The notes beneath the pieces were generated by a model. The model was not told where the DNA came from and made no database searches. It was given only the letters and a program-made list of their open reading frames with translations. From positions 26,481 to 90,480 of the forward strand of contig CAYYTC010000001.1 in NCBI GenBank assembly GCA_964474425.1: a stretch of 64,000 bases of DNA, given 5' to 3'. This document shows positions 24,465 to 54,806 of this stretch, in pieces. A program made the position numbers and the translations under genes. Positions within the stretch are counted from its first letter, which is position 1. Every line of letters begins with the position of its first letter. The DNA comes from an uncultured Acidobacteriota bacterium. GTDB lineage: Bacteria > Acidobacteriota > UBA6911.

Positions 24465-26948
<2,484 letters not shown>

Positions 26949-27153
26949 TCATTGTTTCAAAGACTGGGCGATAAAAAATGCTGCAAGCTTTTTATTTACA
27001 ATAAATTATTTGATTAGTCCCAAAGTCAGAAGTATAGCACAAGCTGCCCTCAAAATGGAGCAAAAATAAGCGATTTAATTTAATATTAAGGTATTGATAT
27101 TATTGAACTTACATCGATGCTTCGGACGTCCCGGAACCGGCCGCCGTCGCCGT

Positions 27154-28266: not shown

Positions 28267-28268
28267 AC

Positions 28269-31143: not shown

Positions 31144-31189
31144 GGATCCATACCTGGCGGCGACTGGAAAGAGATATGATTGCCTGTAT

Positions 31190-31226
31190 CGGAGTTTTCC
31201 ACAGCCCTTCCACAACTGTGGAAAAC
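31190..31226. promoter_or_regulatory. DnaA-box pair upstream of dnaA (autoregulatory site)
   Basis: gTTTTCCACAgccctTCCACAacTGTGGAAAAc holds convergent TTTTCCACA/TGTGGAAAA boxes around the palindrome TCCACAACTGTGGA, 50-80 bp upstream of the dnaA ATG. Confidence 0.4.
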
Positions 31227-38129: not shown

Positions 38130-38472
38130 GGACCCACAGGACCATGCGGGGCTTCTTCCCCAGTTCGGCGGCGAGATCCTCGACGCGACCGTATTTCATG
38201 CAGGCAGCCATGCAGTGCTTCACGCATGCCGGTTCAAGGTCCTCCCGGGTGAGATGCGGGCAAAGGACGCAGGTTTCGGTGGGAAACGGGAAATAGGACA
38301 GGTAGAGGCGGCCGTTGGGCAGCTTCTGTTCCGCCTCGAAGACCTTGATGCCGCGCACGCCGGGCGGATGGTTGTATTCCTGGGCACAGGCGATTTCGCA
38401 GCTGTGGCATCCTGTGCAGTATTCGTAATCGATCAGCAATCCGAATTCGGGCTTCTTTTCCATCCTATTCAT
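38125..38472 (-). CDS. 2x[4Fe-4S] ferredoxin-like electron-transfer subunit
   Basis: 115 aa. CTGCHSCEIAC and CVLCPHL...CVKHCMAAC cysteine clusters. 8-nt overlap with the upstream oxidoreductase gene. Confidence 0.7.
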   Translation of the reverse strand: MNRMEKKPEFGLLIDYEYCTGCHSCEIACAQEYNHPPGVRGIKVFEAEQKLPNGRLYLSYFPFPTETCVLCPHLTREDLEPACVKHCMAACMKYGRVEDLAAELGKKPRMVLWVP

Positions 38473-40927
38473 CCCGCCCCCGGGCTTTGTAAACCTTGCA
38501 CAGCAGATTTTTGATGGGCGCGCCCAGCCCGTCTTTTCCCTGGCTCCCCATCGGGATCAGCTGGTTGATGTTCGACTTCCACGCGCCGAACAGAGACGGC
38601 TCCGCGCCGTCCTCTTCGGGGAACCACCATCCGTGCGCCGCCATGACCATCTGCGGAAGGACCGCAAGAGTCACTTTGGCTTTAAACGTCTGCCTGCCCA
38701 GCCAGTTTTCAATCCACGCCCAGTCCCCGTCGGCGATACCAAGCGCCTTGGCGGTGTCGGGGTGAATCTCGACGGTCGGGTCCGGATCGAGCTCCCGCAG
38801 CCATGGGATCATGCGGTGCTCCGCGTTGAAATACGCGAACGAGCGCCGGCCGGTTGAAAGAATCAGGGGATACTCCTTTGCCAGGTCGGGCCTGCTTACG
38901 GGCGTAAACGGAGGCTCCTCGTAGTGAGGCAGCGGCTCCAGGCCCCACTCCTCGCGAAGCGCGGAATACAGCTCCATTTTTCCCGAAGAAGTGGCGAAGC
39001 CCGGCTGCCCGTCCTGGCGCAGCAGTCCCTTTTCGTGTCGGCGGTAGGGAGCGCTTGAATTCCCTTCAGGCGGCAGGGCCCACTCTTTTTCCTGCAGTTC
39101 CTTGAAAGTCATTCCGGAATTTTTCAGGATTTCGTCGAACAGTTCCTCCACGGATTTCCAGCGCAGGTTTGGATCGAACCTGCGGGCGAGCTCAAAATTG
39201 ATTTCGACGTCCGATTTGCAGCCCTCGACCGAAATCGCCTTGTTGATGGTCTGTAGCGGTACCCACCAGCTGCGGACGCCGTCCTTTTCAAGAAACGTGG
39301 CGGCGGGAAGAACAATGTCCGCAAACTGGGTTGTGGGGGTCATAAACAGGTCGACCGCCGCTACAAAATCGAGCTTCCTGAGAGCTTCGCGCCACTTTTT
39401 CGGCTCAAAACCAATGCCGGCGATCAGGTTGCCGGTTTGCATCCAGAGGGCTTGAATCGGGTACGGTTTTCCGCTGAAAATCTGATCCAGGACCGTGTCC
39501 GTCTGAGTTCGCCAGATGAACTTTCTGAACGGGCCGTATTTGTCGGTGCCGATCCGTGGCTGATCCGCCTCTTTGGAGGACAGGCGTATGATCCCTTGGG
39601 CGCCCGGCAAAGCGTACGATACGCATTCGAACGCGTTGCGGGCGATTACGTTGCCGCCGGGGACTTCCAGGTTGCCCGTGAGGCACCAGAGAGCCGTAAT
39701 CGCCTGGGCTGCCGGCGTAATGCCCGGGGTGGAATCTATCGGCAGGCCCCAATGAATCGACGCAGGTTTGCTTTCGGCGAAGAAGCGCGCGGCGGCCTGG
39801 ATTTCCTTTTTGGGCACCCAGGTGATTTCCGATACCCGGTCGAGGGTGTACCGGTCGACCTCAGCGCAAAACGCATCCCACGCAGTTCCGCATTCGGCCT
39901 CGGAGCCGTCCTCCAGCTCGATTGAATAAGCGCCGCGAAGAGCCGGCCTGGGATTCCCGGATGCGTATCGTGCTTTTCCGGATTCCCAAACAGCCGCCTG
40001 CCCTGCTTCGCGGTCCCATACCACAAAGTTATCCCGTGAACCGTTTTTCCGCACATCGGCTTCACGCAGCAGCTTGCCGGTATCCTTTCTGATGAGGAAC
40101 GGGGCGTTCGTCCATTTTTCCACGAAGTCGTGGTCGTAGAGGTCCTCGGCGAGGATCGTGTTCAGGAAACCCATGGCCAGGGCTCCATCGGTGCCGGGAC
40201 GGAGTCTGAGCCAATGCTTTGCGCGCGACGAAAACCACGTCAGGCGTGGATCCACGCAAACAATTTCGGTCCCGCGCTTCATCAGATCGATGAACCAGTG
40301 GCCGAAAATGTTGTCGGGGCACGTGTTGGGAATGTTGTAACCCCAGATCACGATGCACTGCGGCGCCCGGTAGCGCGGGTCCTCGTAACGAGTCTCAAAC
40401 CATTGCGCGGCATCCGGCACGCAGTAGTCGCCCATCACCGTTTCCACCGCGGCAATCCTCGGGCTGTAACAGGCGTTTCCGCTCAATGCAAACATGACGT
40501 TCGGGCTGCCGTAAGCGTAGGCCAGCATGCAAAGCCACGGGCTGATGTCGCGGCCCGTCCCCATGCTGAAAACGACGCTCTCAGGACCGTATTGCTTCCG
40601 GATGGCGACCAGCTTTTCTTCGATCAGGTCGAAGGCTTCTTCCCAGGATATCTCCTCCCATTTCCCTTCGCCCCGTTCGCCGGCACGCTTCAAGGGACGG
40701 GTCAGGCGGTCGGGGTGATATACGTACTGGGTCATCGCCAGGCAGCGGGCGCAAAGCCGCCCCTGGTTCCACGGATGATCCGGATCGCCTTCTATCTTGA
40801 CGAGTTTGCCCTTGCGCACGTGGGCGAACACGCCGCAAGTCCCGTGGCATCCGGGTCCGGCGGACCACACGGTAGTCCGCAGGATCTCAGTGTCTTTTGT
40901 TTTTGGCTTGATTTTCAAGCCGGCCAA
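38465..40927 (-). CDS. molybdopterin/tungstopterin (bis-MGD) oxidoreductase catalytic subunit, DMSO-reductase family
   Basis: 820 aa, domain order typical of the family. The N-terminal cluster region SAGPGCHGTCG...CARC is a variant in which the first Cys is Gly. Confidence 0.85.
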   Translation of the reverse strand: MAGLKIKPKTKDTEILRTTVWSAGPGCHGTCGVFAHVRKGKLVKIEGDPDHPWNQGRLCARCLAMTQYVYHPDRLTRPLKRAGERGEGKWEEISWEEAFDLIEEKLVAIRKQYGPESVVFSMGTGRDISPWLCMLAYAYGSPNVMFALSGNACYSPRIAAVETVMGDYCVPDAAQWFETRYEDPRYRAPQCIVIWGYNIPNTCPDNIFGHWFIDLMKRGTEIVCVDPRLTWFSSRAKHWLRLRPGTDGALAMGFLNTILAEDLYDHDFVEKWTNAPFLIRKDTGKLLREADVRKNGSRDNFVVWDREAGQAAVWESGKARYASGNPRPALRGAYSIELEDGSEAECGTAWDAFCAEVDRYTLDRVSEITWVPKKEIQAAARFFAESKPASIHWGLPIDSTPGITPAAQAITALWCLTGNLEVPGGNVIARNAFECVSYALPGAQGIIRLSSKEADQPRIGTDKYGPFRKFIWRTQTDTVLDQIFSGKPYPIQALWMQTGNLIAGIGFEPKKWREALRKLDFVAAVDLFMTPTTQFADIVLPAATFLEKDGVRSWWVPLQTINKAISVEGCKSDVEINFELARRFDPNLRWKSVEELFDEILKNSGMTFKELQEKEWALPPEGNSSAPYRRHEKGLLRQDGQPGFATSSGKMELYSALREEWGLEPLPHYEEPPFTPVSRPDLAKEYPLILSTGRRSFAYFNAEHRMIPWLRELDPDPTVEIHPDTAKALGIADGDWAWIENWLGRQTFKAKVTLAVLPQMVMAAHGWWFPEEDGAEPSLFGAWKSNINQLIPMGSQGKDGLGAPIKNLLCKVYKARGRDE

Positions 40928-41116: not shown

Positions 41117-41761
41117 TCAGCGCTTTTGTTTTTCCAGAAGAGCGCGGGCGATAGACACCGCGGAGCCGGCGTTTTCCCCATACCCGTCGGCCCCGATTTC
41201 ATCCGCATAAGCCTGGGTGACGGGCGCTCCGCCCACCAGGATCCTTACCCGGTGGCGAAGGCCTGCGCGGCTGAGCGCCTCGATGGTCCTTTTCATTTCC
41301 GGCAGTGTGACCGTTAGAAGAGCCGAGAGCGCGAGTATGTTCGCGTTGCTGTTCCCGACCGCCTCGACGAACTTCTCGGCCGGTACATCGATCCCAAGAT
41401 CGGTGACTTGAAAGCCTGCGCCTTCCAGCATGGAGCCGACCATGTTTTTGCCGATATCGTGCAGGTCCCCTTTCACGGTCCCGAGGACTACCCGCCCGGT
41501 CGGCTGCTCTCCGCGCGCCGCGAGCAGAGGGCGCAAAGGCTCCATCGCTGTTTTCATTGCGCGGGCGGCCAGCAGGATTTCCGGGATGAAGTATTCCTGG
41601 GCTTCAAAGCGCCTGCCGACCTCATCCATGGCCGGGATCATCCACCGGCCGATCAGCTCGGTGGGATTGGCGGATTCCTGCAGAGCTTCCTGGACAAGCT
41701 GCAGCGCCAGTTTGTCCTCGCCGTTAAGGATCGCATCATAAAGCCGGGACCTATCGGGCAT
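41117..41761 (-). CDS. cobalamin-binding (corrinoid) protein, B12-binding domain
   Basis: DxHxxG motif GDLHDIGKN plus GG at the Rossmann end. 214 aa with an N-terminal B12-binding-2 cap. Confidence 0.8.
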   Translation of the reverse strand: MPDRSRLYDAILNGEDKLALQLVQEALQESANPTELIGRWMIPAMDEVGRRFEAQEYFIPEILLAARAMKTAMEPLRPLLAARGEQPTGRVVLGTVKGDLHDIGKNMVGSMLEGAGFQVTDLGIDVPAEKFVEAVGNSNANILALSALLTVTLPEMKRTIEALSRAGLRHRVRILVGGAPVTQAYADEIGADGYGENAGSAVSIARALLEKQKR

Positions 41762-41954
41762 AATTTGTCGACTCCTTTGCGCATCCGGGCTTTGGCCGGA
41801 CCGCGGAAGAGTCTAGCACGCCGGGGAAACCAGGGGCAAACAGACTTGCCTGCTTTTCTCACAGTCGCCCTGCAGCAAATGAAGTCCGAACATCATGGCG
41901 GTTTTATGCGCATCCGTGCTATATAGACATATCTTTTTCGCATGGGAGTGTCGG

Positions 41955-42794
41955 ATGAGCGGAATACCTGTTTTGCACGTTGAGGCGGACTGCATCGCGC
42001 GCGGCTGGGAGGACTCCCTGGTGGAACTGTATCGGCGCGGTTGCGACATCCGCACGCAATATGACAAGGACGGAGATCCGCCGAGCAAGGACTGCACCAT
42101 GATCCTGACCATCGCCGATCCGCTCCGGGAACCCATGATCCACAAAGACTTTCCGGGCGGGCCGGTGGAGCTCCAGGAATATGTCCTGGAGGTGTGCGAA
42201 GGCATCAAGGACCACCTGGTGCGCGATCCCGGCGACCCGGCGGATACGCGCTGGGAGTACACCTATCACCGCCGGCTTTTCGCCTACGACGTGCCGGGCT
42301 TACGGCCTTTCGACCAGATCAATTTAATGTGCCGGAAACTGGCTGAAATCCCGCACACGCGGCGCGCTCAGGCGATAACCTGGAAAGTCTGGGAGGACAA
42401 CGACTGCTTCGATCCCGCCTGTCTTCAAAGCCTGTGGGGCCGCATCATCGAGGAAAACGGCGAATGGTTCCTCAGCTTCAACACTCGTTTCCGCTCCAAC
42501 GATGCCTACAAGGCCGCTTTTATGAACATATTCGCCCTGGTGCAGCTGCAGAAGCTGATGGCCGGCCGTATTGCCGAGATGTCGGGCAAAGAGATAAAAG
42601 TCGGGCGATATTGCCACATTGCGGACAGCTATCACCTTTACGGGTCGTATTTCAAAGATTTCGAAGGCCGGTTCCTCGGCGCTCTCGCGAAGCGCACCTT
42701 CGAGCAGCGCACCCTGCGGTACGAAGCGCTGCGCGGCATGATGGAGGAATCGCGGCCCTCGATCCTGGATAAGGCCAGGCGCATGGGAAGGTAA
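41955..42794 (+). CDS. thymidylate synthase (ThyA)-fold protein
   Basis: [26 protein letters not shown] aligns with E. coli [38 protein letters not shown] aligns with APCHAFFQFYV (catalytic Cys). NIFALVQL...[16 protein letters not shown] aligns with NIASYALL...GDTHLY. Start taken at MSGIPVLHV. Confidence 0.7.
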   Translation: [279 protein letters not shown]

Positions 42795-42883
42795 GGATTA
42801 AGAGCATCGGCGGGAGGTCGATCTTCTTGACTGGCCTTTTCCCGCCGACTATAGTAGCGGTTTTTTCAAAAGGAGGATTTCAG

Positions 42884-44095
42884 ATGTCCGGGCCACTGAC
42901 AGGCGTTCGCGTAGTGGAAATAACCATGTTTCAGCAGGGGCCGGTCGCCGGAACAAAACTGGCGGACCTCGGCGCCGACGTCATCAAAGTCGAACCCAAG
43001 GAGGGAGATCCTGCCCGCGGCTTTATGCGCCTGATCGGAGCCACGGTGGGCCTGAGAGGCGAAAACTATTACTTTGAAAGCAACAACCGCAACAAGCGCA
43101 GCATCGCGCTGGACCTCAAGTCGCCCCAGGGGAAAGAAATCTTCCTGAAGCTGATAGACAAGGCCGATGTCTTCCTGACGAATATGAGCATCGACGCGCC
43201 GATCAAAATCGGCCTCGGTCCCGAAGACCTGATCAAGCGGAACCCGCGCCTCATCTACGGCCATTCCTCGGGATGGGGAAGGAAGGGTCCTGCGGCCGGC
43301 GATCTATCTTTTGACTACACCGGCATTGCCCGTTCCGGTCTGATGATGTGCGCCGGCGAAAAGGGGAGCCCTCCGGGGCAAATGCTGCCCGGCCTGGGCG
43401 ACCAGATCGGCGCCTTAATGCTTGCCTGGGCAATCACGGCGGCTCTGTACGCCCGCGAGAAGACCGGCAAAGGCCAGTTGATCGATACATCGCTGATGGG
43501 CAGCATTATCGCCCTGGAAGGCCTCATCCTCGATGCTCCTGCGATGCTGGGACAGGAATACCCCAGGGAATGCCGGAACGAGGCGGGCAATCCGATGTAT
43601 AACCATTATCCGTGCCGCGACGGCAAATGGATTGCGGTCGCGCACCTGCAGCCGGACCGGTATTGGCCGGCCTTCTGCAAGGCCATGGGCCTTGAGCATC
43701 TGGAACACGATCCCAGGTTCCACACCATGGAAGCGCGCGGCCAGAATTCAAAGGAGCTTATCCGCGTTCTGGACGAGAAGTTTGCCGCCAAAACGCGCGA
43801 TGAGTGGCTTGAGCAGCTGAAGAAAGGAGGCTGCATCTGCACTCCTGTCCAGTCTCTTGCGGAAGTCTGCCAGGATCCCCAGGCAATGGCCAACCAATAC
43901 ATCATAGAAGTCGATCATCCTGTCTGGGGACGGCGGGTTCGGGAAGTCGGCTTTCCGTGGGACTTCAGTGAGACCCCTGCATCCTGGAGAAAGCCGGCGC
44001 CTCAACTGGGCGAGCACACGGAAGAGATTTTGCTGGAACTGGGATACAACAGGGAAGAAATCGGCCGCCTGAAAAGCTCCGGCGCAACCGTGTAG
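42884..44095 (+). CDS. family III CoA-transferase (CaiB/BaiF/FldA/HadA type)
   Basis: The ATG at 42884 has an AAAGGAGG ribosome-binding site. MSGPLTGVRVVEITMFQQGPVAGTKLADLGADVIKVEP is the characteristic N-terminus. Active-site Asp region present. Confidence 0.85.
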   Translation: MSGPLTGVRVVEITMFQQGPVAGTKLADLGADVIKVEPKEGDPARGFMRLIGATVGLRGENYYFESNNRNKRSIALDLKSPQGKEIFLKLIDKADVFLTNMSIDAPIKIGLGPEDLIKRNPRLIYGHSSGWGRKGPAAGDLSFDYTGIARSGLMMCAGEKGSPPGQMLPGLGDQIGALMLAWAITAALYAREKTGKGQLIDTSLMGSIIALEGLILDAPAMLGQEYPRECRNEAGNPMYNHYPCRDGKWIAVAHLQPDRYWPAFCKAMGLEHLEHDPRFHTMEARGQNSKELIRVLDEKFAAKTRDEWLEQLKKGGCICTPVQSLAEVCQDPQAMANQYIIEVDHPVWGRRVREVGFPWDFSETPASWRKPAPQLGEHTEEILLELGYNREEIGRLKSSGATV

Positions 44096-44190: not shown

Positions 44191-45474
44191 CTATTTCACG
44201 GATGGGATGATAATGCCGCCTGAGGGGAGAATCGTTACATCGGCCCGGGGCATTTTCTTCTGAGCTTCGCGGATCGCATCGTCGAGCGAGGAGGCATATC
44301 CGAAATTCATCAGCTCCACCTGCTCCCGTGTTAATCCTTCCGTCACGTGGACCACGTCGTACTGCTCCGACATTTCCTTGAACGGAACACCGAGCATGAA
44401 GAACGAAATACCGTAAGGTTTGATGCTGTCCGGGATATCGCCGTTCAGAAGTCGGCGATGGTATTCGTTGGCGCTTTTGGCGGCCGCCATCTGCTCGATG
44501 AGGGCCATCAGCGGGCCCGCCTGCTTTTGCCCAGCCACCCAGATGATCGTGGAGTCTGTCCTGGCGGCGCTCTTGGCGTTGAGCAGCGATTTCGTCGCCT
44601 GGACGCCGACTTCAAGAGGCGATGCGGACGTGATCACGACATCCGCCGGTTTCGGCAGGGAAACCACGTAGAGGGAGGCGGCGTGATCGCAGGCTTGCCG
44701 GTGCTCCTCGACGGGGTCTCCCGCAAAGACCCTGATGACCTGGTTGGTTTCGTTCAGGAGGAAATCGATTTTGAAGGCCAGACAGCCCAGGCGGGCTATT
44801 TCCACGATTTCTTCGTAATAGGGATTCCCTTCCAGGACATTCAGTTTGCAGCTTTTGTTGCGAAGCCAGTTGTAGTGGTGATCCCCGATGGTGCGGTAAG
44901 AGGCAACTCCAGGCATGATGATCTTGCAGCCGCCCCCGAATCCGGCATTGGGATGGGGCATGCAAGCCCCGATGCCCAGAACCAGATCGGCTTCGGCCAC
45001 ATGCCTGTTGATCTCGACCACCGTTCCGCGGCGGGTTTTGCCTATCCACACGTTTTCCGGCGACTGGGATTCGTGGATGTGGATACGGCCCGCGAGCCGG
45101 CGCACGGCTTCCGTCCCGATTTTCTTTTCAACCTGCTCCGGCGTCGGCGCGGGATGAGTTCCCCGGGCGCAGATGGCCGTAATCCGTTCGTCCGGCACCC
45201 CGGCCTTGTTCAGGCGGTTCAGGACCGCCGGGAGAGCCAGATAGGCGGGAGTCGGCCTCTGCATGTCATCGAAAAGCACCACCGTTCTCATTCCCGGACG
45301 GGCGAGCTTTTCAAGGGGCGCAGTCCCGATAGGGTTGTCGAGAGCGCGCTCGACCTCTTTGACGGGGTCCTCAACCAAAGGCGCAGGCGCGCAATCCCGG
45401 GAGCTGATCACGTTCCATTCCGCCGGCAGGGAGAAATTCATTCTACCGCCGCCGTAGTTCAAATAGTAGTTCAT
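44191..45474 (-). CDS. LarA-family (lactate-racemase-like, DUF2088) Ni-pincer-nucleotide-dependent racemase/epimerase homologue
   Basis: The ATG at 45474 has an AGGAAGAGGA ribosome-binding site; the track ORF to 45903 is a read-through. MNYYLNYGGGRMNFSLPAEW...GTHPAPTPEQ...MPHPNAGFGGGCKIIMPG with His residues in LarA-like positions. Confidence 0.8.
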   Translation of the reverse strand: MNYYLNYGGGRMNFSLPAEWNVISSRDCAPAPLVEDPVKEVERALDNPIGTAPLEKLARPGMRTVVLFDDMQRPTPAYLALPAVLNRLNKAGVPDERITAICARGTHPAPTPEQVEKKIGTEAVRRLAGRIHIHESQSPENVWIGKTRRGTVVEINRHVAEADLVLGIGACMPHPNAGFGGGCKIIMPGVASYRTIGDHHYNWLRNKSCKLNVLEGNPYYEEIVEIARLGCLAFKIDFLLNETNQVIRVFAGDPVEEHRQACDHAASLYVVSLPKPADVVITSASPLEVGVQATKSLLNAKSAARTDSTIIWVAGQKQAGPLMALIEQMAAAKSANEYHRRLLNGDIPDSIKPYGISFFMLGVPFKEMSEQYDVVHVTEGLTREQVELMNFGYASSLDDAIREAQKKMPRADVTILPSGGIIIPSVK

Positions 45475-45571
45475 GGTTCCTCTTCCTGAAATTGATATCG
45501 TCTTACAACTATGCCACGAATCCGCGCAAATTTCACGGGAATCCGGCCGGAAATCCCGGTTGGCGGGACGT

Positions 45572-46333
45572 CTATCCCAGGATTGCCGCTCCGACTGCGG
45601 CAGAAACCTGAGGCTCCTCGGGAACCAGTATTTTTGCGCCCAGCTCTGTTTCCAGCGTCCGCACGAGGCCGATGTCTTTGGCGCCCCCGCCGGTGACGGC
45701 GCAGTCGGGAGCCAGACCGAGGCGGACGATGAGGTTGACGATTTTTGCCGCCATCGCTTTGTGCACTCCCGCCAGGATATCCGCCGGGCCGGCGCCTTCG
45801 GCAATCCGCGAAACCGCTTCAGACTCGGCAAAGACCGCACATCCTGTGGTGAATTCGACCGGATTTGCAGACTCCAGGGACAGGGCGCCGATATCCGCGA
45901 CATTCATATGGAGAATCCGCGCGATGACCTGGAGAAACTTGCCGCTTCCGCCCGCGCACTTCTCGTTCTGAACAAAATTCATCACCTTGCCGTCGTTCCC
46001 CAGCTTAATCGCCCGGCTGAACTGGCTGCCGATGTCCACCACGGTCCGGGCCGAAGGGAAGAAATGAAAAATCCCGGCAGCGTGACAGGAGATGTCGGCA
46101 ACGGTCCGGTCGGCAAAATCAACCGCCCCGGCTCCCCAGCCTGTCGCCACCGTCGTTGAAATTTCCGCGCGGGAGAGGTTTGCCTTTTCGAGTGCGGCAT
46201 CCGAGACTTTCCGGGCCGATTCCGCGTAGTTACCGCCCGAAGGCACTGTGGCATGCGACATTAGGCCGGCATCTCCCACGACGGCCGCCTTCGCGAAACT
46301 GGAGCCTACATCGATGCCCAGGTTGTATTTCAT
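45572..46333 (-). CDS. BadF/BadG/BcrA/BcrD-type ATPase (HgdC/BcrD-like activator/electron-transfer subunit)
   Basis: 253 aa. Actin-fold ATPase GIDVGSSFAKA; cluster-binding motif NEKCAGGSGKF. Confidence 0.85.
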   Translation of the reverse strand: MKYNLGIDVGSSFAKAAVVGDAGLMSHATVPSGGNYAESARKVSDAALEKANLSRAEISTTVATGWGAGAVDFADRTVADISCHAAGIFHFFPSARTVVDIGSQFSRAIKLGNDGKVMNFVQNEKCAGGSGKFLQVIARILHMNVADIGALSLESANPVEFTTGCAVFAESEAVSRIAEGAGPADILAGVHKAMAAKIVNLIVRLGLAPDCAVTGGGAKDIGLVRTLETELGAKILVPEEPQVSAAVGAAILG

Positions 46334-46451
46334 GCCGCGGTTCCTATCCCCTATCTATATCTATACCGGCGAAAAACATCAAACGCAAGCATATGGGACC
46401 GGGATTGGCGGCCATGATCCTGCGGGAGGTCGATCCCGAATGGGTCCCGGA

Positions 46452-47306
46452 TCATTGGAAAAAGCTTGCTTCGCCCAGCTGCCGGGGCTTTGTGGCGAGT
46501 TTGCCGCCGGTCTTTACGGCCTTTTCGTACATCTCCTGCCCTATGAGTGCCGCTCCGAGAGCGCCCGTGATGAGCGGCTCGCGGGGAACCTTAACAGGGC
46601 AGCCGAATTTTGCCTCCAGCGCTTTCACCAGCCCGATATTTTTCGCTCCGCCGCCCGTTATGGCTACATCGGGCCTGATTTTGAGCTTGCTGACGAGAGC
46701 GAATATGCGCGTCGCGATAGCCTGGTGAATGCCCGCCACAAGGTTGGGGATGGACTCGCCGTCCGCCAGCTGCGAGATAACCTCCTGTTCGGCGAAAACA
46801 GTGCACGTGTTGCCGATAACGGCCGGTTTCTCGGCGGCCAGGGACAGTTCCCCGAGTTTTTCCAGGGGAATGCCGAGAGCTTCCGCAATGATTTCCAAAA
46901 AGCGACCCGTGCCGGCGGCGCATTTGTCATTCATGACGAAATCGACAACCTTGCCGTTTTCCAGGCGAATCCCTTTGCTGTCCTGGCCCCCGATGTCCAC
47001 TACGGTGTGCGCCGAGGGGAGGAGGCTCGACAGGCCCTTTGCGTGACAGGTGATCTCCGTAACCTGCCGGTCGGCAAACGGCACATTTATTCTTCCGTAA
47101 CCGGTTGAAACAACATAGGTTACATCGTCGAAAGATATCCCCGCCCGGAGCAGGGCTTCCTCCATCACCCGGTTGGCCAGTTTCCTGTGCTCGGGCCCCG
47201 TAGGTCCAATGATTGAGGACTCCTCGCCGCCGCCCAGGATGACGACCTTGGTCATCGTCGATCCGATATCCACGCCGGCGAAGTAACTGTTGGCAACCTG
47301 CATCAT
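46452..47306 (-). CDS. BadF/BadG/BcrA/BcrD-type ATPase, second paralogue
   Basis: 284 aa. GVDIGSTMTKV; NDKCAAGTGRF. Clearly a different paralogue from 45572..46333. Confidence 0.85.
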   Translation of the reverse strand: MMQVANSYFAGVDIGSTMTKVVILGGGEESSIIGPTGPEHRKLANRVMEEALLRAGISFDDVTYVVSTGYGRINVPFADRQVTEITCHAKGLSSLLPSAHTVVDIGGQDSKGIRLENGKVVDFVMNDKCAAGTGRFLEIIAEALGIPLEKLGELSLAAEKPAVIGNTCTVFAEQEVISQLADGESIPNLVAGIHQAIATRIFALVSKLKIRPDVAITGGGAKNIGLVKALEAKFGCPVKVPREPLITGALGAALIGQEMYEKAVKTGGKLATKPRQLGEASFFQ

Positions 47307-47327
47307 AAATACATTGGTAAATCCCCG

Positions 47328-47387
47328 GCTCTGCCGGGGGACTCAAAGAGTTTGACAGCTCCGTATTTCGAAACGCTGATAAAAACG
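47328..47387. repeat. about 60-bp conserved intergenic element, copy B, immediately upstream of the ATPase/activator genes
   Basis: Identical 41-nt core to 41008-41048. It lies 22 nt upstream of the 46452..47306 start codon. Confidence 0.6.
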
Positions 47388-47550
47388 CTGACAACCGATT
47401 TGTTCGGCGAGGATCGGAAGCGCCCCATCGGCTTTTGCCCGCGTAGGTCAGCGTTCAAGACCGGCGTAACTCCTCCAACCGCTTTGAGGGGTTCAAATCT
47501 TTCAAGCCTCCGGCTTTGCCGGAAGTACCTGACCCGACACGGAGCTGCTA

Positions 47551-48876
47551 TTACTTCCCTTTCCTGGCCGCCAGGGTCTCGATGAACGCGTCGATCCTGT
47601 TATGCGTATCGGCCTCATTGTAGGAGCTGATGTCGACGATGTCCCCCTCCATGATAAGAGTGGGAACGTCGCCGTAGACCTTGTTCAGCACCTGGGCCTG
47701 CTGGACGATGCCCGCGTGCCAGCTGCGGCAGGAATATGCGGAGTGGAATACCACTCCGTCGCACCGGTAGTCTTCCATATATTCGATGATGCGCTCGACC
47801 TTCGGCAGCGAACCCGGCCGCTTGCGCGCCTTGTCGAACCAGCGGGTCCAGAGACGCACCCATCTCCATGCGAGGTGTTCGAGGGGATCGCTGGTTTTGG
47901 GCAGGTCGAGGCGTTCAATCTTCTCGGCGTTGCGATAGGTGACTTCAACCGGGAAAACGGCTCCCTTATCGTTGAAGTACTGGAAATCGCCCAGAGCAAA
48001 CCAGGAAGGCAGGCCGGCGCCCCAGACGAGCCGGTATTTCTCGTCCTCGGCCACGCCTTTTTTCTGAGCAATCTTTTCCTGGAGCTCGCTATAGAGTTCT
48101 TTATAAAAATCGAGGGCTTCCTGGGTGCCCAGATTGAAAGTCAGCGGCACCATCGTGTTCATGGCGTCGCCCGTATCCATAGGGGTCGGAATGGCTTTCC
48201 GCAGCTCATAGCTGTCGATAAACATGTCCCAGGTCCGGTCGGTCAAATCGACCAGCGCGGCGAGCCGGTCCCAGTCCATTTTTTTCCCCGTGTGCTTTTC
48301 ACAGAATCGCACCAGGCTCCGGAGTTCTTCGGTGGCGTACTTTACGTAAAGCTTCTCCTGCTCCTTGTGATCGATGGCCGGATCCCAGGGAGGATAGTAC
48401 ATGGTCCCCATCCAGACAGGGACGTCCTGGAGATAGTGCTGGGTTGCCTGGGGCCACTTTATCCTCGGGTCGCACAACTGCTGGGCGCTGCCGATAATCA
48501 TATCGGGCCTTCCCATCCCCCCCCACGGAGTATTCGGGGGAATCTCCCCTCCCAGTTCCTCGCGCCACATGTCGAAGCCGATGGTGCATGTCGCATAGGT
48601 GCACAGCGAGCGGGAGAAATTTTCAGCCTCCGCCTTCTGGAGAAATTTCTCCGCGTCTCTCTTGGCGGAACAAACGCCGGCGAAATTCTCGCCCCAGGCC
48701 GGGACGATATCCATGGCGCGGACGATTTCGTCCTGAGCGTTGTTGATATAGGTGTAGGCTACCTTCTTGCCTTCTTCCCTGGCTTTCAAAGTTGCGGCCA
48801 TGTTGGTCCTGCCGAATTTCCCTGCTTTCCCCGCCGCCTGTGTCGCCAGTGGTCTTGGTTTTCTGATTTCAGCCAT
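47551..48876 (-). CDS. BcrB/BzdO/HgdB-like subunit of a benzoyl-CoA reductase / 2-hydroxyacyl-CoA dehydratase family enzyme
   Basis: 441 aa. Conserved Cys/His pattern; C-terminus NRIDAFIETLAARKGK shared with the 50301 paralogue. Confidence 0.8.
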   Translation of the reverse strand: MAEIRKPRPLATQAAGKAGKFGRTNMAATLKAREEGKKVAYTYINNAQDEIVRAMDIVPAWGENFAGVCSAKRDAEKFLQKAEAENFSRSLCTYATCTIGFDMWREELGGEIPPNTPWGGMGRPDMIIGSAQQLCDPRIKWPQATQHYLQDVPVWMGTMYYPPWDPAIDHKEQEKLYVKYATEELRSLVRFCEKHTGKKMDWDRLAALVDLTDRTWDMFIDSYELRKAIPTPMDTGDAMNTMVPLTFNLGTQEALDFYKELYSELQEKIAQKKGVAEDEKYRLVWGAGLPSWFALGDFQYFNDKGAVFPVEVTYRNAEKIERLDLPKTSDPLEHLAWRWVRLWTRWFDKARKRPGSLPKVERIIEYMEDYRCDGVVFHSAYSCRSWHAGIVQQAQVLNKVYGDVPTLIMEGDIVDISSYNEADTHNRIDAFIETLAARKGK

Positions 48877-48888
48877 GTATCTCTCCCG

Positions 48889-50046
48889 TTACGCAATCAT
48901 TTCCAGGAATGCTTCTATCCGGGTTTTCACCCGGCCGAGGCTGGACGTGTTGTATTCATCCTCAATATAGAGGACCGGCGTCCCGGCGGTTTCAATGAAG
49001 CTTTTTATCGCGGGGACTTCAAAGCCGTATGGATCGCAATATTTGTAGATGAAAAGGATCGCCCCGTTCACCCGGAAGTCTTTGATGTACTGCCTCATGT
49101 GGCCGAAGCGCGCTTCGAGATTTTCCGAATAGGTGTTTCCCCCGGAGACGAACGTCGTGGGGAATTTCAATTTTTTGAGGTACCTCTCGGTGATGCCCCG
49201 GACCGGATCGTCTGTCGGATCCACGTCGCCCCAGTACATTTTGCTGCCTGTCGAAAGGTCGTCCATGACCATGCACGCACCGGCATCTTCTATGGCCCTG
49301 ACGATCGCCACGTCGTCGATCTGGTCCCCCACGAGCATGATCCGCGCCGTTGGACTGCCGTTTGCGCGAACCCGATTTTTTGCTTCTTGGGTAACGCTTT
49401 TTATCAGGGCGGTGGACTCGTCGACGGGGAGGCTCATGGAGGCTATGAGGACCTTCATCATTTCGGCGCCGGAGATGCGGGGCGCATCTTCTTTCCGAAG
49501 CTCGTAAAGCTCTCTCATGGCCCGCCGGTTTTCGTTATGAGCGCGGACGGCTTCCGTGAGTGCCTGATCGGTGATGCTTTTCCCCGTGAACTTTTCCAGA
49601 GTCCTCAGGAAAATTCTCAGGATCTCGTCCGTAAACTCGATCGATGGATCGTCCGTGACATGAGGGTAGTTGATAAAATGCCAGTACGGGAGTTCCAGTT
49701 TTTCACTCCACACATCAAAGGTTCTTTCGACGCTGTCGCATTGATGCGGCAATACCATGCCGTCCAGGTAAGCGTATCTCCCCTTGAGAGCCGCATCGAA
49801 GGCATTCCGGACAAAGGGGCATATCATCGTCTCCATATAGGCATCGGCCTTCGTCACCGGTTCCGATACGTAGCCCTTCAGCCGGACCGGCACGACGCCC
49901 GCCGCCGTGAGGATCTCCACGGGGCAGAGAGCGGACATATACCCGATGACTTTTCTGCCCGAGCTCCTCAGTTCCCGGGCTCTCGACCCATAGTCGGAAT
50001 AGTATTTTTCAACCGTTGCCAATCCGCCCGATTGCGCTTCTCCCAT
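48889..50046 (-). CDS. BcrC/BzdN/HgdA-like subunit of the same enzyme family
   Basis: The ATG at 50046 has a GGAGGTG ribosome-binding site; the track ORF to 50274 is a read-through. 385 aa, MGEAQSGGLATVEKYYSDYGSRAREL... Confidence 0.8.
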   Translation of the reverse strand: MGEAQSGGLATVEKYYSDYGSRARELRSSGRKVIGYMSALCPVEILTAAGVVPVRLKGYVSEPVTKADAYMETMICPFVRNAFDAALKGRYAYLDGMVLPHQCDSVERTFDVWSEKLELPYWHFINYPHVTDDPSIEFTDEILRIFLRTLEKFTGKSITDQALTEAVRAHNENRRAMRELYELRKEDAPRISGAEMMKVLIASMSLPVDESTALIKSVTQEAKNRVRANGSPTARIMLVGDQIDDVAIVRAIEDAGACMVMDDLSTGSKMYWGDVDPTDDPVRGITERYLKKLKFPTTFVSGGNTYSENLEARFGHMRQYIKDFRVNGAILFIYKYCDPYGFEVPAIKSFIETAGTPVLYIEDEYNTSSLGRVKTRIEAFLEMIA

Positions 50047-50300
50047 CTTTTCACCTCCCCGGCTGGCCGCCGATATGAAACTGCGCATGCCGAAAAAGAC
50101 TAAGTGTAACATTGGAAGCAGCAAGCCAAAAGCCAGAAGACAGCATGAAGAAATTTGACATTCGGGCTCGAGGCAAGCCATATTTGGGATTGAGGACAGG
50201 TGTGTCCGATGAACAGCAACCCCATAGATACAGGAGCGAGGGAGTGAAAACGGAACAAAGCAAGCCGCAGGCATTCAAGAAAATCCAAGCAACCAACAAG

Positions 50301-51503
50301 ATGAAAGAAATCATGGAGCAGCATTTCCGCGAGCTGGATGAAGCCGCCAGGACCCAAAGCAGCAAGATCGCCTGGTGCACCAGCGTCGGGCCCGCCGAAC
50401 TGTTGCGCGCAGCGGGATTCCTGGTTTTCTTTCCGGAAAATCACGGCGCCATGCTCGGATCGACCCGCATGGCTACGGATCTTATTCCTTTAGCCAATGC
50501 CCTGGGCTACTCTCCCGACATCTGTTCGTATCTGACCAGCGATATCGGGTCCTACATCAAGGGCGAAAGCCCCATAAGCAAGGCGTACCCCGGCATCAGC
50601 GGCCCGCCCCGGCCCGACGTGCTGGTTTACAACACCAACCAGTGCCGCGATGTGCAGGACTGGTACAACTTCTATGCGCGGGAATTCAAGGTGCCCGTTA
50701 TCGGCGTTGAGACGCACCGCGGCGTCGGCGACATTACCAAGGCGCATGTGGATTCCATCTCAGCGCAGATCCAGGGGCTTGTGCCGAAGCTGGAGGAGAT
50801 CTCCGGCCGGAAACTCGATTACGAGGAATTCAGGCGCGTGGTCGGCCTTTCCCGTCAATGCACGGACCTGTGGAAACAGGTGCTGCAGATCGCCTCGAAC
50901 GTTCCGTCGCCCTTGACATTCTTTGACGGCACGATCCAGATGGGACCCGCGGTGGTTCTCCGCGGCGAGCAGAGGGCGGTCGATTATTACAAACTCCTTC
51001 TTGCGGAACTGCAGCAGCGGGTCAAGGACGGGGTTGCCGCCATCGACAATGAGAGGTTCCGCCTATACTGGGAAGGCATGCCGATCTGGGGCAAGCTGCG
51101 GGAACTGTCCACTCAGTTTGCGAGCCTGGATACCTGCGTTCTGGCTTCGACCTACTGCAGCAGCTGGGTTTTCCCCGCTCTGGACCCGGACGATCCCTTC
51201 GACAGCATGGCGCGCGCTTACATCGAGCTGTTCATCGTTCGCAATGAAGCGTACAAGGAGAACTATTTCGAGAGAGAGATCGATCTGTACAAGATCGACG
51301 GCATGATTTTTCACGATGCAAAAACCTGCCCCAACAATTCCAACAACCGTTACGGCCTGCCGGAACGTCTCTCCCAAAACTACAGCATGCCGATGCTCGT
51401 GCTGCACGGGGACCTGAACGACCTGCGCTGCTACTCGGAAGAACAGGCCCGCACCAACATCGAGGCGTTCATCGAGCAGCTGGCGGAGAGGAAGGGCCGT
51501 TGA
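50301..51503 (+). CDS. second BcrB/HgdB-like subunit paralogue
   Basis: The ATG at 50301 gives MKEIMEQHFRELDEAARTQSSKIAWCTS... C-terminus NIEAFIEQLAERKGR. 401 aa. Confidence 0.8.
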   Translation: MKEIMEQHFRELDEAARTQSSKIAWCTSVGPAELLRAAGFLVFFPENHGAMLGSTRMATDLIPLANALGYSPDICSYLTSDIGSYIKGESPISKAYPGISGPPRPDVLVYNTNQCRDVQDWYNFYAREFKVPVIGVETHRGVGDITKAHVDSISAQIQGLVPKLEEISGRKLDYEEFRRVVGLSRQCTDLWKQVLQIASNVPSPLTFFDGTIQMGPAVVLRGEQRAVDYYKLLLAELQQRVKDGVAAIDNERFRLYWEGMPIWGKLRELSTQFASLDTCVLASTYCSSWVFPALDPDDPFDSMARAYIELFIVRNEAYKENYFEREIDLYKIDGMIFHDAKTCPNNSNNRYGLPERLSQNYSMPMLVLHGDLNDLRCYSEEQARTNIEAFIEQLAERKGR

Positions 51504-52291
51504 TTTCCGACGCGATTTACGGCGGTGTGGATGTCGGGGCTTCGGCGACCAAGGTCGCCATCATCGACTCCCGGAAAGAGCTCCTGGCTTCCGACGTGAG
51601 GAAGACCGGGGTCAATTTTGAAACCTGCGCGCAGGAGGCCATGGATGCGGCTTTGGCCTCCTGCGGCAAAAGCCTGTCCGATCTCGCGCGCATCCTCTCG
51701 ACCGGCTACGGCCGCCACAACGTCGCTTTCGCGCAGGCAACCCGGACCGAGATCGCCTGCCACTCCCGCGCCGCACACCACTTCTTCCCGCGCAAAATTG
51801 CGGTCGTTGATGTCGGAGGCCAGGATAATAAGGTCATTCATGTGGACGCCGAAGGCAGGCGCATCAATTTCAAGATGAACCGCAAATGCGCTGCGGGAAC
51901 GGGCGCCTTCCTCGAAGAGGTTGCCCAGCGCATGGACGTGCCGATGGACCAGATTGAACCCCTGGCGCGCCAGGCCCAACACATCGTCCACATGGGAAGC
52001 TTTTGCACCGTATTTACCAAAACGGAAATTTTGGCCCATTTGCGCGCGGGCGAGAAGGTGCCTGAGATCGTGGCCGGGCTCATCGAATCGGTCGTGAAGC
52101 GGATTATAGAAATGGATCCGCTCTCGGGCGATGTCGTCATCAGCGGCGGGGTGGTGGCCCACAATCCGGTGCTCGCGGAAATGCTGTCCCAGCGTTTGGG
52201 CCGCCCGGTAAACATTTTGCCTCACGCGCAGCTGGCAGGCGCTTTTGGAGCCGCCCTGCTTGCCGCCGATGATCGGGAGAATGAACCGTAG
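51500..52291 (+). CDS. BadF/BcrA/HgdC-type ATPase (third activator paralogue)
   Basis: The TTG start overlaps the upstream stop (GTTGA) behind a GGAGAGGA ribosome-binding site. GVDVGASATKV; NRKCAAGTGAF. 263 aa. Confidence 0.8.
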   Translation: MISDAIYGGVDVGASATKVAIIDSRKELLASDVRKTGVNFETCAQEAMDAALASCGKSLSDLARILSTGYGRHNVAFAQATRTEIACHSRAAHHFFPRKIAVVDVGGQDNKVIHVDAEGRRINFKMNRKCAAGTGAFLEEVAQRMDVPMDQIEPLARQAQHIVHMGSFCTVFTKTEILAHLRAGEKVPEIVAGLIESVVKRIIEMDPLSGDVVISGGVVAHNPVLAEMLSQRLGRPVNILPHAQLAGAFGAALLAADDRENEP

Positions 52292-52300: not shown

Positions 52301-53578
52301 TTATGCAGTAAGTTTGGGAAGCGCGCTCGAACCTTGAGGCATGAGGTAGATTTTCTTCCCTCCCCTGGCGAGGGCCATCTCCAGAGCTTCCTCCACGGTC
52401 CTGGCGGTCTTCAGCGCAGTCCGCTTCAGCAGCGAAGGATCCCCGCCGCCCACAATGATGATGTTCCACTTTTCTGCGGCGGTGCACATGTAATAGCTCA
52501 CGTATTTGGCCACCGTGAAGAGACTGCGGACCTCTTTTTCCCTCTCCGCGTTCGTGCCGCATCCCAGGAATATCGTGTTTGCGTCCGGCGGCCCGATGCC
52601 TTCCGAGCAGTCGCTCAGGATGATCATGGTGCCGCCCGGCTTCGTCGCTTCCTGCGTATGGTAGATGCCCTTGCCGGTCTGGCAGACGTCGATATCCTTC
52701 GGGTACCCGCCCTGCGACGAGATCGTGATGTCGGCAAGCTCTTGGATCGGCACGGCATAGAGATCGTCCACGATTTTTCGTCCCACGGCGTGCGCCTGCT
52801 CATAGTGCCCGCAAACGGCCTGCGCGATTTTTCCGTCGTGTCCCATGATCACGTTGAACATGAACGAAGGATTCACAATCGAGGCGACTTCGAGCATGTC
52901 CAGGTGCATCGGGTTATCCTGGATATTCCCGCTCCTGACTTCAGGACGTTGTTGTCCCCTTTCATCCATCACCATCAGGTGATTGTGCTGGATGGATTCG
53001 ATGGAGGAAATCCCGGGCAGAATCGACTTCTTCCCTCCTCCCCAGCCGACCCACGGGTGATAGGTGCAGCAGCCGGTCAGGATCAGGTGGTCGGCCTCCG
53101 CCGCAATTCTGTTGATGGTCACGGGTGTTCCGCGGCTGGTTTTGCCCAGAGGGACCAGGTTGGCCTTATCCATGCAGTCATGGTCAATGATTCCAAAACG
53201 CTCCAATAGCGCCTTACCCAGCTGCTTTTCGTGCTCCTCCGGAGTCTGACCGCGGTGGTAGCCGAGAGCGCACAGGAAGCGTATATCCTTGTCCCTGACA
53301 CCCGCTTCATTCAGTTCGTTCACGATATGCGGCAGATAGACGTGCATTCTCTGCCAGGCGCGGGTCACGTCGGATACGACAACGCAGACGGTCTGACCGG
53401 GCTTGACGATCTCCTTCAGCCTTGGAGCGCCGATCGGTCTGGCGAGCGCGGCCAGGATCGCTTCATCTTCGGTCATTGTGGAGGGGGGCACCTCCTTGAG
53501 GATCACGCCCAGCAGGTTTTCCTCCGGGACGGATACATCTACGTAGCCATGGCCGAGCTTCATTTTTATGGTCTTCAT
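52301..53578 (-). CDS. LarA-family racemase/epimerase homologue, second copy
   Basis: The ATG at 53578 has an AAGGAG ribosome-binding site. MKTIKMKLGHGYVDVSVPEEN...CALGYHRGQTPEEH...HPWVGWGGGKKSILPG. Confidence 0.8.
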   Translation of the reverse strand: MKTIKMKLGHGYVDVSVPEENLLGVILKEVPPSTMTEDEAILAALARPIGAPRLKEIVKPGQTVCVVVSDVTRAWQRMHVYLPHIVNELNEAGVRDKDIRFLCALGYHRGQTPEEHEKQLGKALLERFGIIDHDCMDKANLVPLGKTSRGTPVTINRIAAEADHLILTGCCTYHPWVGWGGGKKSILPGISSIESIQHNHLMVMDERGQQRPEVRSGNIQDNPMHLDMLEVASIVNPSFMFNVIMGHDGKIAQAVCGHYEQAHAVGRKIVDDLYAVPIQELADITISSQGGYPKDIDVCQTGKGIYHTQEATKPGGTMIILSDCSEGIGPPDANTIFLGCGTNAEREKEVRSLFTVAKYVSYYMCTAAEKWNIIIVGGGDPSLLKRTALKTARTVEEALEMALARGGKKIYLMPQGSSALPKLTA

Positions 53579-53816
53579 GCATGGGCTCCTTCTGTGACCG
53601 GCATATGGGAAGGGGGAAAATGCCACGCATGGACGCGAATGTGAGAACTTCCCGGAAGAGAACCCATGAAATCCGTGGCGGTCGCCTGCATTGCATCGGA
53701 GACCTCAGAGCCTGTCACATCTGGAATTTTACACTGAAAACAGGGAATCGGGGCCATAAAATCGGGCCTCTCCCTGCGCGGTGTGAAGCCCGTTTAATAT
53801 TTTGCAGCGGGCACCG

Positions 53817-54806
53817 TCACCGAAGCACGATGCTGCCGGACCCGGTGCGCACCTCCACCAGGTTGCCGCCGCCGCGAAACTTGCCGCTGGCCACCTTCGA
53901 GCTCAGCGCGCCGTTAAAATCCGATGCTCTTTCGAAATTTATCCGGCCCGAGGCTGTGCGGGCATTGAGATCAAAAGCCGCGTCCGGCGGCACATCGAGC
54001 GCGACGCTTCCGGATGAGGCATGGATGCTCCAATTGCCCGCGGGATTTCCGCCGGCCTTGATGCTTCCGCTTCCCGTGCTTGCGCGAAGGGATCCTGAGA
54101 TTCCGGAAATTTCGATGCTGCCCGAACCGGTGCGGGCAGCCACGTCCATGGCCGAACCCTGTTCAGCGGCCGTCAGGTCCAGCGTTATGGCGCCGCTACC
54201 GGTGCTTGCGCTGACGGATCCGGCAATCCCCATAGCCTTGATGGAACCGCTGCCGGTTCTCACCTCGAGCCTTCCGGTCAAACTGCGGGCTTCGATGCCG
54301 CCCGAGCCGGCCTGTGCGTTCACATCACCCCGGATATTGTCTATGTTGATGGATCCGGAGCCGGTAGCAAGTTCCACGCGTCCCTGCAATCCATAAATCC
54401 GCTGGCTTCCGGACCCGGCACGGCTGCTCAAGCTCGTTTCGGGAGGCGTTTCGATCTCGTATCTGATTGAGACATTGTTCCTGTAGTCGTCCTCCTCGAT
54501 CCGGCCGACGCGGATCACATTGCCGTTCTGTTCGATCGGCGGCTGCGATTCCAGGTACTTGATCTTCTCTTCCGCGGTCGCGTGCCGGTCATCCCGGGCT
54601 TTGATTATGCCCCGAATCCTGAGGAAGCCGAAATTTCCGGCCTTTACATCAACACTCCCGGATCCGGTTATGACATCCAGGGTGACCGGGCCGGCCACAG
54701 TCAGAGTGCGCTCAAATGTTCCTTCCACGGCCGGGAATGCCGCCAGGCATCCCGTAAGGCTGGTCAAAGCTATAATTGTTGAGATGCGCAACAGGTAGTG
54801 TCTCAT
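53817..54806 (-). CDS. lipoprotein with a DUF4097 beta-repeat domain
   Basis: Lipobox LTSLTGC. Repeated TGSGSI(D/E)(V/I) strands. 329 aa. Confidence 0.65.
   Translation of the reverse strand: MRHYLLRISTIIALTSLTGCLAAFPAVEGTFERTLTVAGPVTLDVITGSGSVDVKAGNFGFLRIRGIIKARDDRHATAEEKIKYLESQPPIEQNGNVIRVGRIEEDDYRNNVSIRYEIETPPETSLSSRAGSGSQRIYGLQGRVELATGSGSINIDNIRGDVNAQAGSGGIEARSLTGRLEVRTGSGSIKAMGIAGSVSASTGSGAITLDLTAAEQGSAMDVAARTGSGSIEISGISGSLRASTGSGSIKAGGNPAGNWSIHASSGSVALDVPPDAAFDLNARTASGRINFERASDFNGALSSKVASGKFRGGGNLVEVRTGSGSIVLR

Follow-up and report, generated by a model that had tools for sequence, protein, structure and literature searches.

A 64,000-nucleotide (nt) stretch of DNA from an uncultured Acidobacteriota bacterium (contig CAYYTC010000001.1, positions 26,481 to 90,480; here, the window) carries four genes, here N, O, A1, and A2, that encode one enzyme system of the radical family formed by the benzoyl-CoA reductases (BCRs) and the 2-hydroxyacyl-CoA dehydratases (HADs). 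The module is an uncharacterized, widely conserved member of this oxygen-sensitive family; it mixes a BCR-type architecture with a HAD-type cluster pattern and gene context, and it forms a distinct clade. We favor, with about even confidence, the reading that N-O-A1-A2 is a ketyl-radical enzyme of the 2-hydroxyacyl-CoA dehydratase type that carries its own asymmetric, heterodimeric ATPase, because its cofactor pattern and, above all, independent gene neighborhoods in two phyla point to 2-hydroxyacyl-CoA chemistry. An initial annotation of this DNA had offered two possibilities, an ATP-dependent aryl- or dienoyl-CoA reductase of class I or a dehydratase with an unusual heterodimeric activator. 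The gene context fits the second better than the first. The sequences show which genes are present and next to what, how far they are conserved, which cluster ligands they keep, and how the ATPase motifs differ; the heterodimer, its single competent ATP site, the dehydration, and the kind of substrate are inferred.

The module is shared across three phyla. A scan with one genome per species yielded 80 loci, 57 of which have at least 2.3 kb of sequence after O and are informative for ATPase order. The order N-O-A1-A2 occurs in 55 of these 57, in Acidobacteriota, Syntrophorhabdales/Syntrophus, and Dehalococcoidales, and wherever the ATPase pair is present its first gene is always of the A1 type and its second always of the A2 type. 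At the two remaining loci, both "delta" and Syntrophorhabdales-type (L015 and L049), N-O stands without adjacent ATPase genes, although the sequence continues for more than 8 kb downstream; their ATPase genes may lie in another part of the genome. Identity to N is 75 to 95% in Acidobacteriota, about 61 to 75% in Syntrophorhabdales, Syntrophus, and other "delta" metagenome-assembled genomes (MAGs), and about 52 to 57% in Dehalococcoidales. The nearest locus, in an uncultured Acidobacteriota MAG, has the same gene order over 20 kb, and its four module proteins are 94 to 99% identical to those of the window. An exact-sequence look-up of O found no identical protein on record, and N has 1799 relatives at E<=1e-30. 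Members of the family occur widely in uncultured anaerobes from soils, sediments, and digesters.

The first line of evidence for dehydratase-type chemistry is the cluster pattern of N. In the BzdNO reductase of CIB (PDB 8S02), BzdN holds an [8Fe-9S] double cubane through six cysteines, and the N-like subunit of HADs keeps only a [4Fe-5S] remnant (PMC11971306). A residue-level alignment places cysteines of N at three of the six columns common to BzdN and DCCP (Cys76, Cys103, and Cys337), and these are the same three that HadC and MbdN keep. The other three double-cubane columns are occupied by Ser38, Ser265, and Phe295, the serines being invariant and the phenylalanine present in at least 90% of the family. 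Because three of the six cysteines are kept, those of HadC and MbdN, we describe N as a BzdN-like scaffold with a single-cubane pattern; its three cysteines are predicted to hold a single [4Fe-4S] cluster. DCCP, the double-cubane cluster protein, and its reductase DCCP-R (PDB 6ENO, 7YYL) have the same fold and the same ATPase type, but DCCP forms homodimers in which each subunit has six cluster cysteines, and its ATPase is homodimeric as well. The double_cubane model NF040772 (cut-off, 350 bits) gives N 204 bits and O 70 bits.

The cluster ligands of O are in line with HAD chemistry as well. BzdO binds a [4Fe-4S]-OH2 cluster via Cys95, Cys128, and Cys380, with Glu65 and His131 beside the water ligand (PMC11971306). 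Cys92, Cys135, and Cys383 of O occupy the positions of the three cysteines that bind the cluster in BzdO and HadB, and Glu63 and Tyr94 correspond to Glu65 and Tyr97 of BzdO, the Glu being present in HadB too. His131, which MbdO also lacks, is replaced by Arg138, Glu381 by Arg384, and Leu383 by Trp386, all three invariant in the O family; Glu318, present in at least 90% of the family, aligns with Leu302 of BzdO in a region where the alignment is less certain. As charged or bulky residues replace several of those that line the benzoyl pocket, the pocket of O looks charged, unlike the hydrophobic one of BzdO. Together, N and O are two PF06050 proteins with a three-cysteine site each, which fits a HAD alpha-beta heterodimer, and they are accompanied, as in HADs, by PF01869 ATPase with a bridging cluster. 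An AlphaFold2 model of O (mean pLDDT, 67.9; below 50 around the active site) left BzdO, MbdO, and HadB inseparable in Foldseek (TM, 0.70 to 0.72) and adds nothing beyond fold membership.

The gene neighborhoods weigh most. In the HAD pathway, a 2-oxo acid is converted to an (R)-2-hydroxy acid, which passes through a CoA-transferase to the dehydratase (PMC11574389). LarA homologs are racemases of free 2-hydroxy acids; the substrates of the LarAH10 family are hydrophobic, with phenyllactate as one example (PMC11770544). The neighbors of the module mirror the HAD pathway, since genes for CoA-transferases, LarA, GlcD/GlcF-like proteins, indolepyruvate:ferredoxin oxidoreductase (IOR), and aminotransferases are linked to it. 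In the window, A2 is followed on its strand, after a gap of 82 nt, by a LarA gene (LarA_a; Table 1) that probably belongs to the same operon. This position is kept at two other loci (L007 and L011), and at all three a family III CoA-transferase gene (CoAT_a) lies beside the operon. The nearest NCBIfam model to LarA_a is the malate racemase LarAH6 family (276 bits; cut-off, 500), and the nearest solved structure to CoAT_a is succinate-hydroxymethylglutarate CoA-transferase (SUGCT; 186 bits).

In 18 of 20 informative Dehalococcoidales loci, an ortholog of CoAT_a (62 to 69% identity) is located upstream of the module at a distance of no more than 1.6 kb. The next gene downstream encodes a GlcD-like FAD dehydrogenase in 7 of 11 (510 bits with TIGR00387; cut-off, 568), and it is followed by one for a GlcF/LdhH-like CCG iron-sulfur protein; some loci also have IorA/IorB-like, aminotransferase, and AMP-ligase genes nearby. 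At two Syntrophorhabdaceae loci (L030 and L053), an IOR alpha gene (in L030, 678 bits against a cut-off of 651) is divergent from N, and AMP-ligase genes come after A2. The two elements of a HAD-pathway context, a CoA-transferase and a supplier of the (R)-2-hydroxy acid, are thus both found, but they are absent at most Syntrophorhabdus loci. No small ferredoxin ORF of the CxxCxxCxxxCP type lies within 2.5 kb of the module at any of the 80 loci, and no benzoyl-CoA lower-pathway genes (dch/had/oah-like; hydratase, dehydrogenase, or ring hydrolase) are among the annotated recurrent neighbor clusters of these neighborhoods; whole genomes were not searched. The neighborhoods thus give no hint of a stoichiometric supply of electrons or of a pathway for ring degradation. 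Clusters of bcr and bzd genes are linked to genes for ferredoxin and the dienoyl-CoA pathway (dch, had, oah).

Which 2-hydroxy acid would be used is less consistent. The SUGCT-like CoAT_a, the malate-racemase-like LarA_a, and the invariant Arg138 and Arg384 could hint at a dicarboxylate, and the IOR gene and a LarAH10-like neighbor (Table 1) could hint at an aryl or hydrophobic substrate. Among the HADs, the FldABC/FldI phenyllactate dehydratase is the aryl counterpart. Because the two sets of hints conflict, we dropped a substrate assignment. The gene neighbors nevertheless bear on how the module is named. Public names conflict, with JGI giving benzoyl-CoA reductase and NCBI giving 2-hydroxyacyl-CoA dehydratase family protein; the former label is probably wrong, since the neighbors point to 2-hydroxy-acid fermentation. 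Reports of anaerobic aromatic degradation that rely on such "bzdNOPQ/bcr" matches in metagenomes would be overstated if ring reduction is not the function of the module.

The second unusual feature of the module is its ATPase pair. All motifs of A1 are canonical (DIGST, GGQD within DIGGQD, NDKCAAGTG, and TCTVFAE). All A2 orthologs have GxQF in place of GGQD, with Phe replacing Asp, GS(S/G/A) in place of GST, and NEKCA(G/A)GSG as the cluster motif. The two cluster motifs named in the initial annotation, NDKCAAGTG in A1 and NEKCAGGSG in A2, were both found, a second cluster cysteine is present in each protein, and both cysteines are conserved in every ortholog of A1 and A2. Each exceeds the activase family cut-off (TIGR00241, 125 bits; A1, 268; A2, 221). 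Scored with phmmer against the PDB, A1 is closest to MbdQ (249 bits, 48% identity), followed by HadI (225), HgdC (209), and MbdP (139), and A2 is closest to HadI (201), followed by MbdQ (197.5), HgdC (173), and MbdP (132).

A1 and A2 are 43% identical to each other, and the annotation of a BCR-like gene order with two truly different ATPases holds. In a neighbor-joining (NJ) tree they form two separate, monophyletic sister clades with parallel internal branching; MbdQ is their next neighbor, and HadI/HgdC, the DCCP reductase, and MbdP fall outside, with the deep branching tentative in a tree of five references taken from PDB alignments. Recent tandem duplication, which the initial annotation had raised, is ruled out by this identity and by the span of both clades over three phyla. 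The presence of A1 and A2 as separate clades in three phyla therefore indicates ancient paralogs, from an old family-specific duplication kept under selection.

From these motifs we infer that A1 and A2 would form a heterodimer with one fully competent ATP site, analogous in function to the alpha/delta pair of class I reductases. An arrangement of this kind is found in MbdONQP, the 3-methylbenzoyl-CoA reductase of Thauera chlorobenzoica (PDB 9G87, 9GAI), which has an asymmetric ATPase heterodimer of a canonical MbdQ and an MbdP that, like A2, lacks the Asp of GGQD, and whose gamma subunit MbdN has only three cysteines. N and O are 23 to 24% identical to MbdN and MbdO. The asymmetry of A1/A2 is probably of independent origin from that of MbdQP, because A2 is sister to A1 and is not an ortholog of MbdP (31% identity). 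The search with A2 also returned fusion proteins of 570 to 600 amino acids (aa) (P0361, P0362, P0364, P0368, and P0371) that join one canonical GGQD domain and one degenerate BcrAD_BadFG domain, in P0362 in the order canonical to degenerate, as in A1 to A2. These fusions suggest that the pairing of a canonical with a degenerate ATPase recurs within the BcrAD_BadFG family. The other top representatives of this library-wide search were mostly canonical GGQD proteins (102 of 150).

A dehydratase of this kind could work as follows. N and O would form a heterodimer with one [4Fe-4S] cluster per subunit, that of O having a free iron site toward the acyl-CoA pocket, and A1 and A2 would form a second heterodimer that bridges a third [4Fe-4S] cluster through two cysteines from each subunit. 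Reduced ferredoxin or flavodoxin would load the A1/A2 cluster, and the binding and hydrolysis of ATP, for which the canonical A1 site is probably the main one, would push one low-potential electron via N to the cluster of O. At this cluster, an (R)-2-hydroxyacyl-CoA would become a ketyl radical through reduction of its thioester carbonyl, the alpha-hydroxyl would depart, the beta-proton would be abstracted, and the electron would return to the enzyme, for a net dehydration to the enoyl-CoA. The substrate might originate as a 2-oxo or 2-hydroxy acid from the fermentation of amino acids or organic acids; a LarA-type racemase or a GlcD/GlcF-like dehydrogenase would supply the correct enantiomer, and thioester formation would fall to the family III CoA-transferase. 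If a dehydratase-type enzyme had such a fixed, asymmetric pair of ATPases, this would blur the textbook split between the catalytic activation of HADs by a homodimer and the stoichiometric ATP coupling of BCRs by a heterodimer. The module would also serve as a tractable system for the role of a degenerate second ATPase subunit.

Several observations weigh against the dehydratase reading. HAD operons use the order activator-alpha-beta, whereas the module has the BCR order (gamma-like, beta-like, ATPase, ATPase) or, in HAD terms, beta-like, alpha-like, ATPases. Two non-identical ATPase genes after two catalytic-subunit genes are a trait of class I BCRs; characterized HADs use one homodimeric activator (PMC11574389), and here we find two distinct, co-conserved ATPase genes, one with degenerate nucleotide-site motifs. 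A conserved pair with a degenerate partner is common to the module and the reductase MbdPQ, MbdP (GGQT) being the only reference that also lacks the GGQD Asp. The solved structures closest to N and O are those of BzdN and BzdO, with which they also group when all are placed in one NJ tree (identity, 32% for N and 27% for O), while a neighboring HAD-like subunit, alphaX (Table 1), groups with HadB; the trees include only a few references, recovered from PDB alignments. Neither N nor O is nested inside HadBC; N is only 25% identical to HadC, and O is only 22% identical to HadB. Finally, the neighbors at most Syntrophorhabdus and several Acidobacteriota loci are uninformative (sigma-54 activator, PAS/HD-GYP proteins, and housekeeping genes).

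The order, the conserved pair of distinct ATPases, the missing Asp of A2, and the proximity of N and O to BzdN and BzdO would all fit an ATP-stoichiometric class I BCR-type reductase acting on a substrate other than benzoyl-CoA, an alternative that we consider unlikely but substantial. Such an enzyme might use two electrons to remove the alpha-hydroxyl reductively from a 2-hydroxyacyl-CoA for which dehydration is impossible, or it might reduce an enoyl-, dienoyl-, or aryl-acyl-CoA from a 2-hydroxy-acid pathway, with the A1/A2 heterodimer giving one electron per ATP, twice per turnover. The match of A1 to MbdQ also agrees with it, and the 2-hydroxy-acid context would allow it a 2-hydroxyacyl-CoA substrate. 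On the other side, N has only a single-cubane pattern, and the [8Fe-9S] cluster of BzdN is believed to serve as a two-electron store (PMC11971306); this argument is weak because MbdN also has only three cysteines. In addition, no ferredoxin gene is linked to the module, and spending one ATP per electron would presumably be costly for its hosts, which are energy-limited anaerobes. To our knowledge, no such reductase reaction is known.

Somewhat more doubtful is a new reaction type in which the module is a heterotetrameric, ATP-stoichiometric ketyl-radical reductase acting on 2-hydroxyacyl-CoA, for example in the reductive alpha-dehydroxylation of a substrate without an abstractable beta-hydrogen, with A1/A2 spending one ATP per electron. 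Were this true, the module would be an evolutionary link between Bzd-type reductases and dehydratases, with its BzdN-like scaffold and its HAD-like single cubane.

We regard a true Bzd-type reductase of benzoyl-CoA, or of a substituted aryl-CoA, as improbable. It has some appeal: JGI and some MAG annotations use the names "bzd-type benzoyl-CoA reductase N subunit" and "Benzoyl-CoA reductase subunit B," BzdN and BzdO are the closest solved structures, and the hosts of the module include Syntrophorhabdus and Syntrophus, which are known to degrade aromatic compounds. In marine Dehalococcoidia, bzdNOPQ-like genes from single-cell genomes, which may or may not belong to the N-O-A1-A2 family, were interpreted as a class I BCR (PMC5736913). 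However, the module falls far short of the bzd equivalog cut-offs (TIGR03190 bzdN, 204 against 453.8 bits for N; TIGR03191 bzdO, 96 against 448.6 for O; TIGR03192 bzdQ, 175 for A1 and 145 for A2 against 380.2). N lacks three of the six double-cubane cysteines, and the pocket of O looks charged at the positions given above. By phmmer against the PDB, N scores 198 bits with BzdN, 124 with HadC, 94 with DCCP, and 84 with MbdN, and O scores 81.5 with BzdO, 67.5 with MbdO, and 61 with HadB; a profile of the O family is near-equidistant from the same three (104, 91.5, and 85 bits). Racemase, CoA-transferase, and GlcD/F-like genes stand in the neighborhoods in place of ferredoxin and dienoyl-CoA pathway genes. 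The aryl- or dienoyl-CoA reductase of class I that the initial annotation had put forward is, on these grounds, unsupported.

The HAD equivalogs, models specific for the isocaproate enzyme, are missed as well (NF052455 HadB, 107 against 750 bits for O; NF052456 HadC, 142 against 700 for N). All curated equivalog cut-offs are thus missed, and no characterized member was found in the literature searched; the description of the module as a poorly described variant holds. The same search found nothing on a heterodimeric HAD activator or on a linkage of LarA to HADs.

It is equally improbable, in our estimate, that A1 and A2 do not pair at all, with A1 a homodimeric activator and A2 a second homodimer of regulatory, repair, scaffold, or alternative activator function. 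All characterized activators are homodimers (PMC11574389), the nucleotide-site motifs of A2 are degenerate, so that A2 may not be an ATPase at all, and two loci have N-O without adjacent ATPase genes. Yet A1 and A2 are adjacent and strictly co-conserved in 55 of 57 loci, no A2 ortholog has lost either cluster cysteine, canonical and degenerate domains occur naturally in one chain (canonical first in P0362), and BCRs have such heterodimers (PDB 9GAI).

The four module genes were all found where the initial annotation had placed them, co-directional on the minus strand and with Pfam matches far beyond chance (Table 1). The longest open reading frame (ORF) of N extends to 50274; we set its start at the ATG at 50046 because GGAGGTG precedes this codon and orthologs are 384 to 386 aa long. 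N and O are separated by 12 nt, O and A1 by 244 nt, and A1 and A2 by 118 nt. Neither ATPase gene is a pseudogene, a possibility the initial annotation had allowed for: both are intact and full length relative to their own orthologs. No recognizable element was found in the 244- and 118-nt spacers, a promoter and terminator scan of 44 to 52.5 kb gave counts not above those of shuffled sequence, and an Rfam scan of the whole window gave zero matches. An 833-aa ORF antisense to the N and O genes (47602-50103, plus strand) was rejected as a high-G+C artifact because its composition is non-coding-like (GC3 < GC1).

Table 1. Genes of the N-O-A1-A2 module, of its neighbors, and of the adjacent alphaX-A3 system (positions in the window)
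Feature	Position	Strand	Remarks
N-like subunit, gamma/beta-type HGD-D protein	48889-50046	minus	385 aa; PF06050 8.6e-85
O-like catalytic subunit	47551-48876	minus	441 aa; PF06050 4.1e-53
ATPase A1, canonical activator/alpha-type ASKHA ATPase	46452-47306	minus	284 aa; PF01869 1.3e-66
ATPase A2, divergent partner	45572-46333	minus	253 aa; PF01869 4.6e-48
LarA_a, nickel-pincer 2-hydroxyacid racemase family homolog	44191-45489	minus	PF09861 1.8e-52 and PF21113
CoAT_a, family III CoA-transferase, convergent with the operon	42827-44095	plus	PF02515 1.8e-117
alphaX, single HadB-like HGD-D subunit	50301-51503	plus	NCBIfam HadB model, 214 bits
A3, canonical activase	51500-52291	plus	PF01869 6.1e-52
LarAH10-like racemase	52301-53626	minus	accessory, second system
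DUF4097 protein	53817-54806	minus	accessory, second system
CoAT_b, CoA-transferase	55023-56234	plus	62% identical to CoAT_a
ADP-forming acyl-CoA synthetase	56301-58352	plus	accessory, second system

A second system, alphaX-A3, is transcribed divergently from N. We ruled out alphaX as a third subunit of the module, and treat alphaX-A3 as an independent system, because elsewhere alphaX stands with its own activase and without N-O-A1-A2 genes. In other genomes, the alphaX and activase pair is accompanied by an ApbA/PanE-type 2-oxoacid reductase and the same synthetase (L087, 4730-11147; L089, 5243-10415), and a family III CoA-transferase lies alongside only in L087 and L088. An N-type (beta) partner for the pair was never found at the other loci examined. 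Among 8000 candidates scored, 7901 were relatives of alphaX at E<=1e-20. alphaX-A3 is a candidate one-subunit, perhaps homodimeric, 2-hydroxyacyl-CoA dehydratase, and it is a parallel case in which paralogs of the CoA-transferase and the racemase surround a HAD-like enzyme.

Other genes adjoin the cluster on the side of CoAT_a. A thymidylate-synthase-like gene (41895-42794, plus strand, 299 aa) lies 32 nt upstream of CoAT_a and is kept beside it in L007 and L011; it scores 88 bits with TIGR03283 (cut-off, 175) and 28 bits with PF00303. Beyond it are genes for a methyltransferase-type corrinoid protein (41117-41761, minus strand, 214 aa) and a molybdopterin oxidoreductase (38465-40927, minus strand, 820 aa) that is nearest to the PhsA and DMSO-reductase families, all below cut-off. 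Both are also kept in L007 and L011.

Since dnaA, dnaN, recF, gyrB, and gyrA also lie in the window, the DNA is chromosomal. These five genes are consecutive (22002-31215, minus strand), a layout typical of the surroundings of a chromosomal replication origin, and the cumulative GC skew has no clear turning point within the window. About 35 kb from the module lies a gene of the aromatic amino acid ammonia-lyase family (8639-10183, plus strand; PF00221, 655 bits), of either the histidine or the phenylalanine/tyrosine type.

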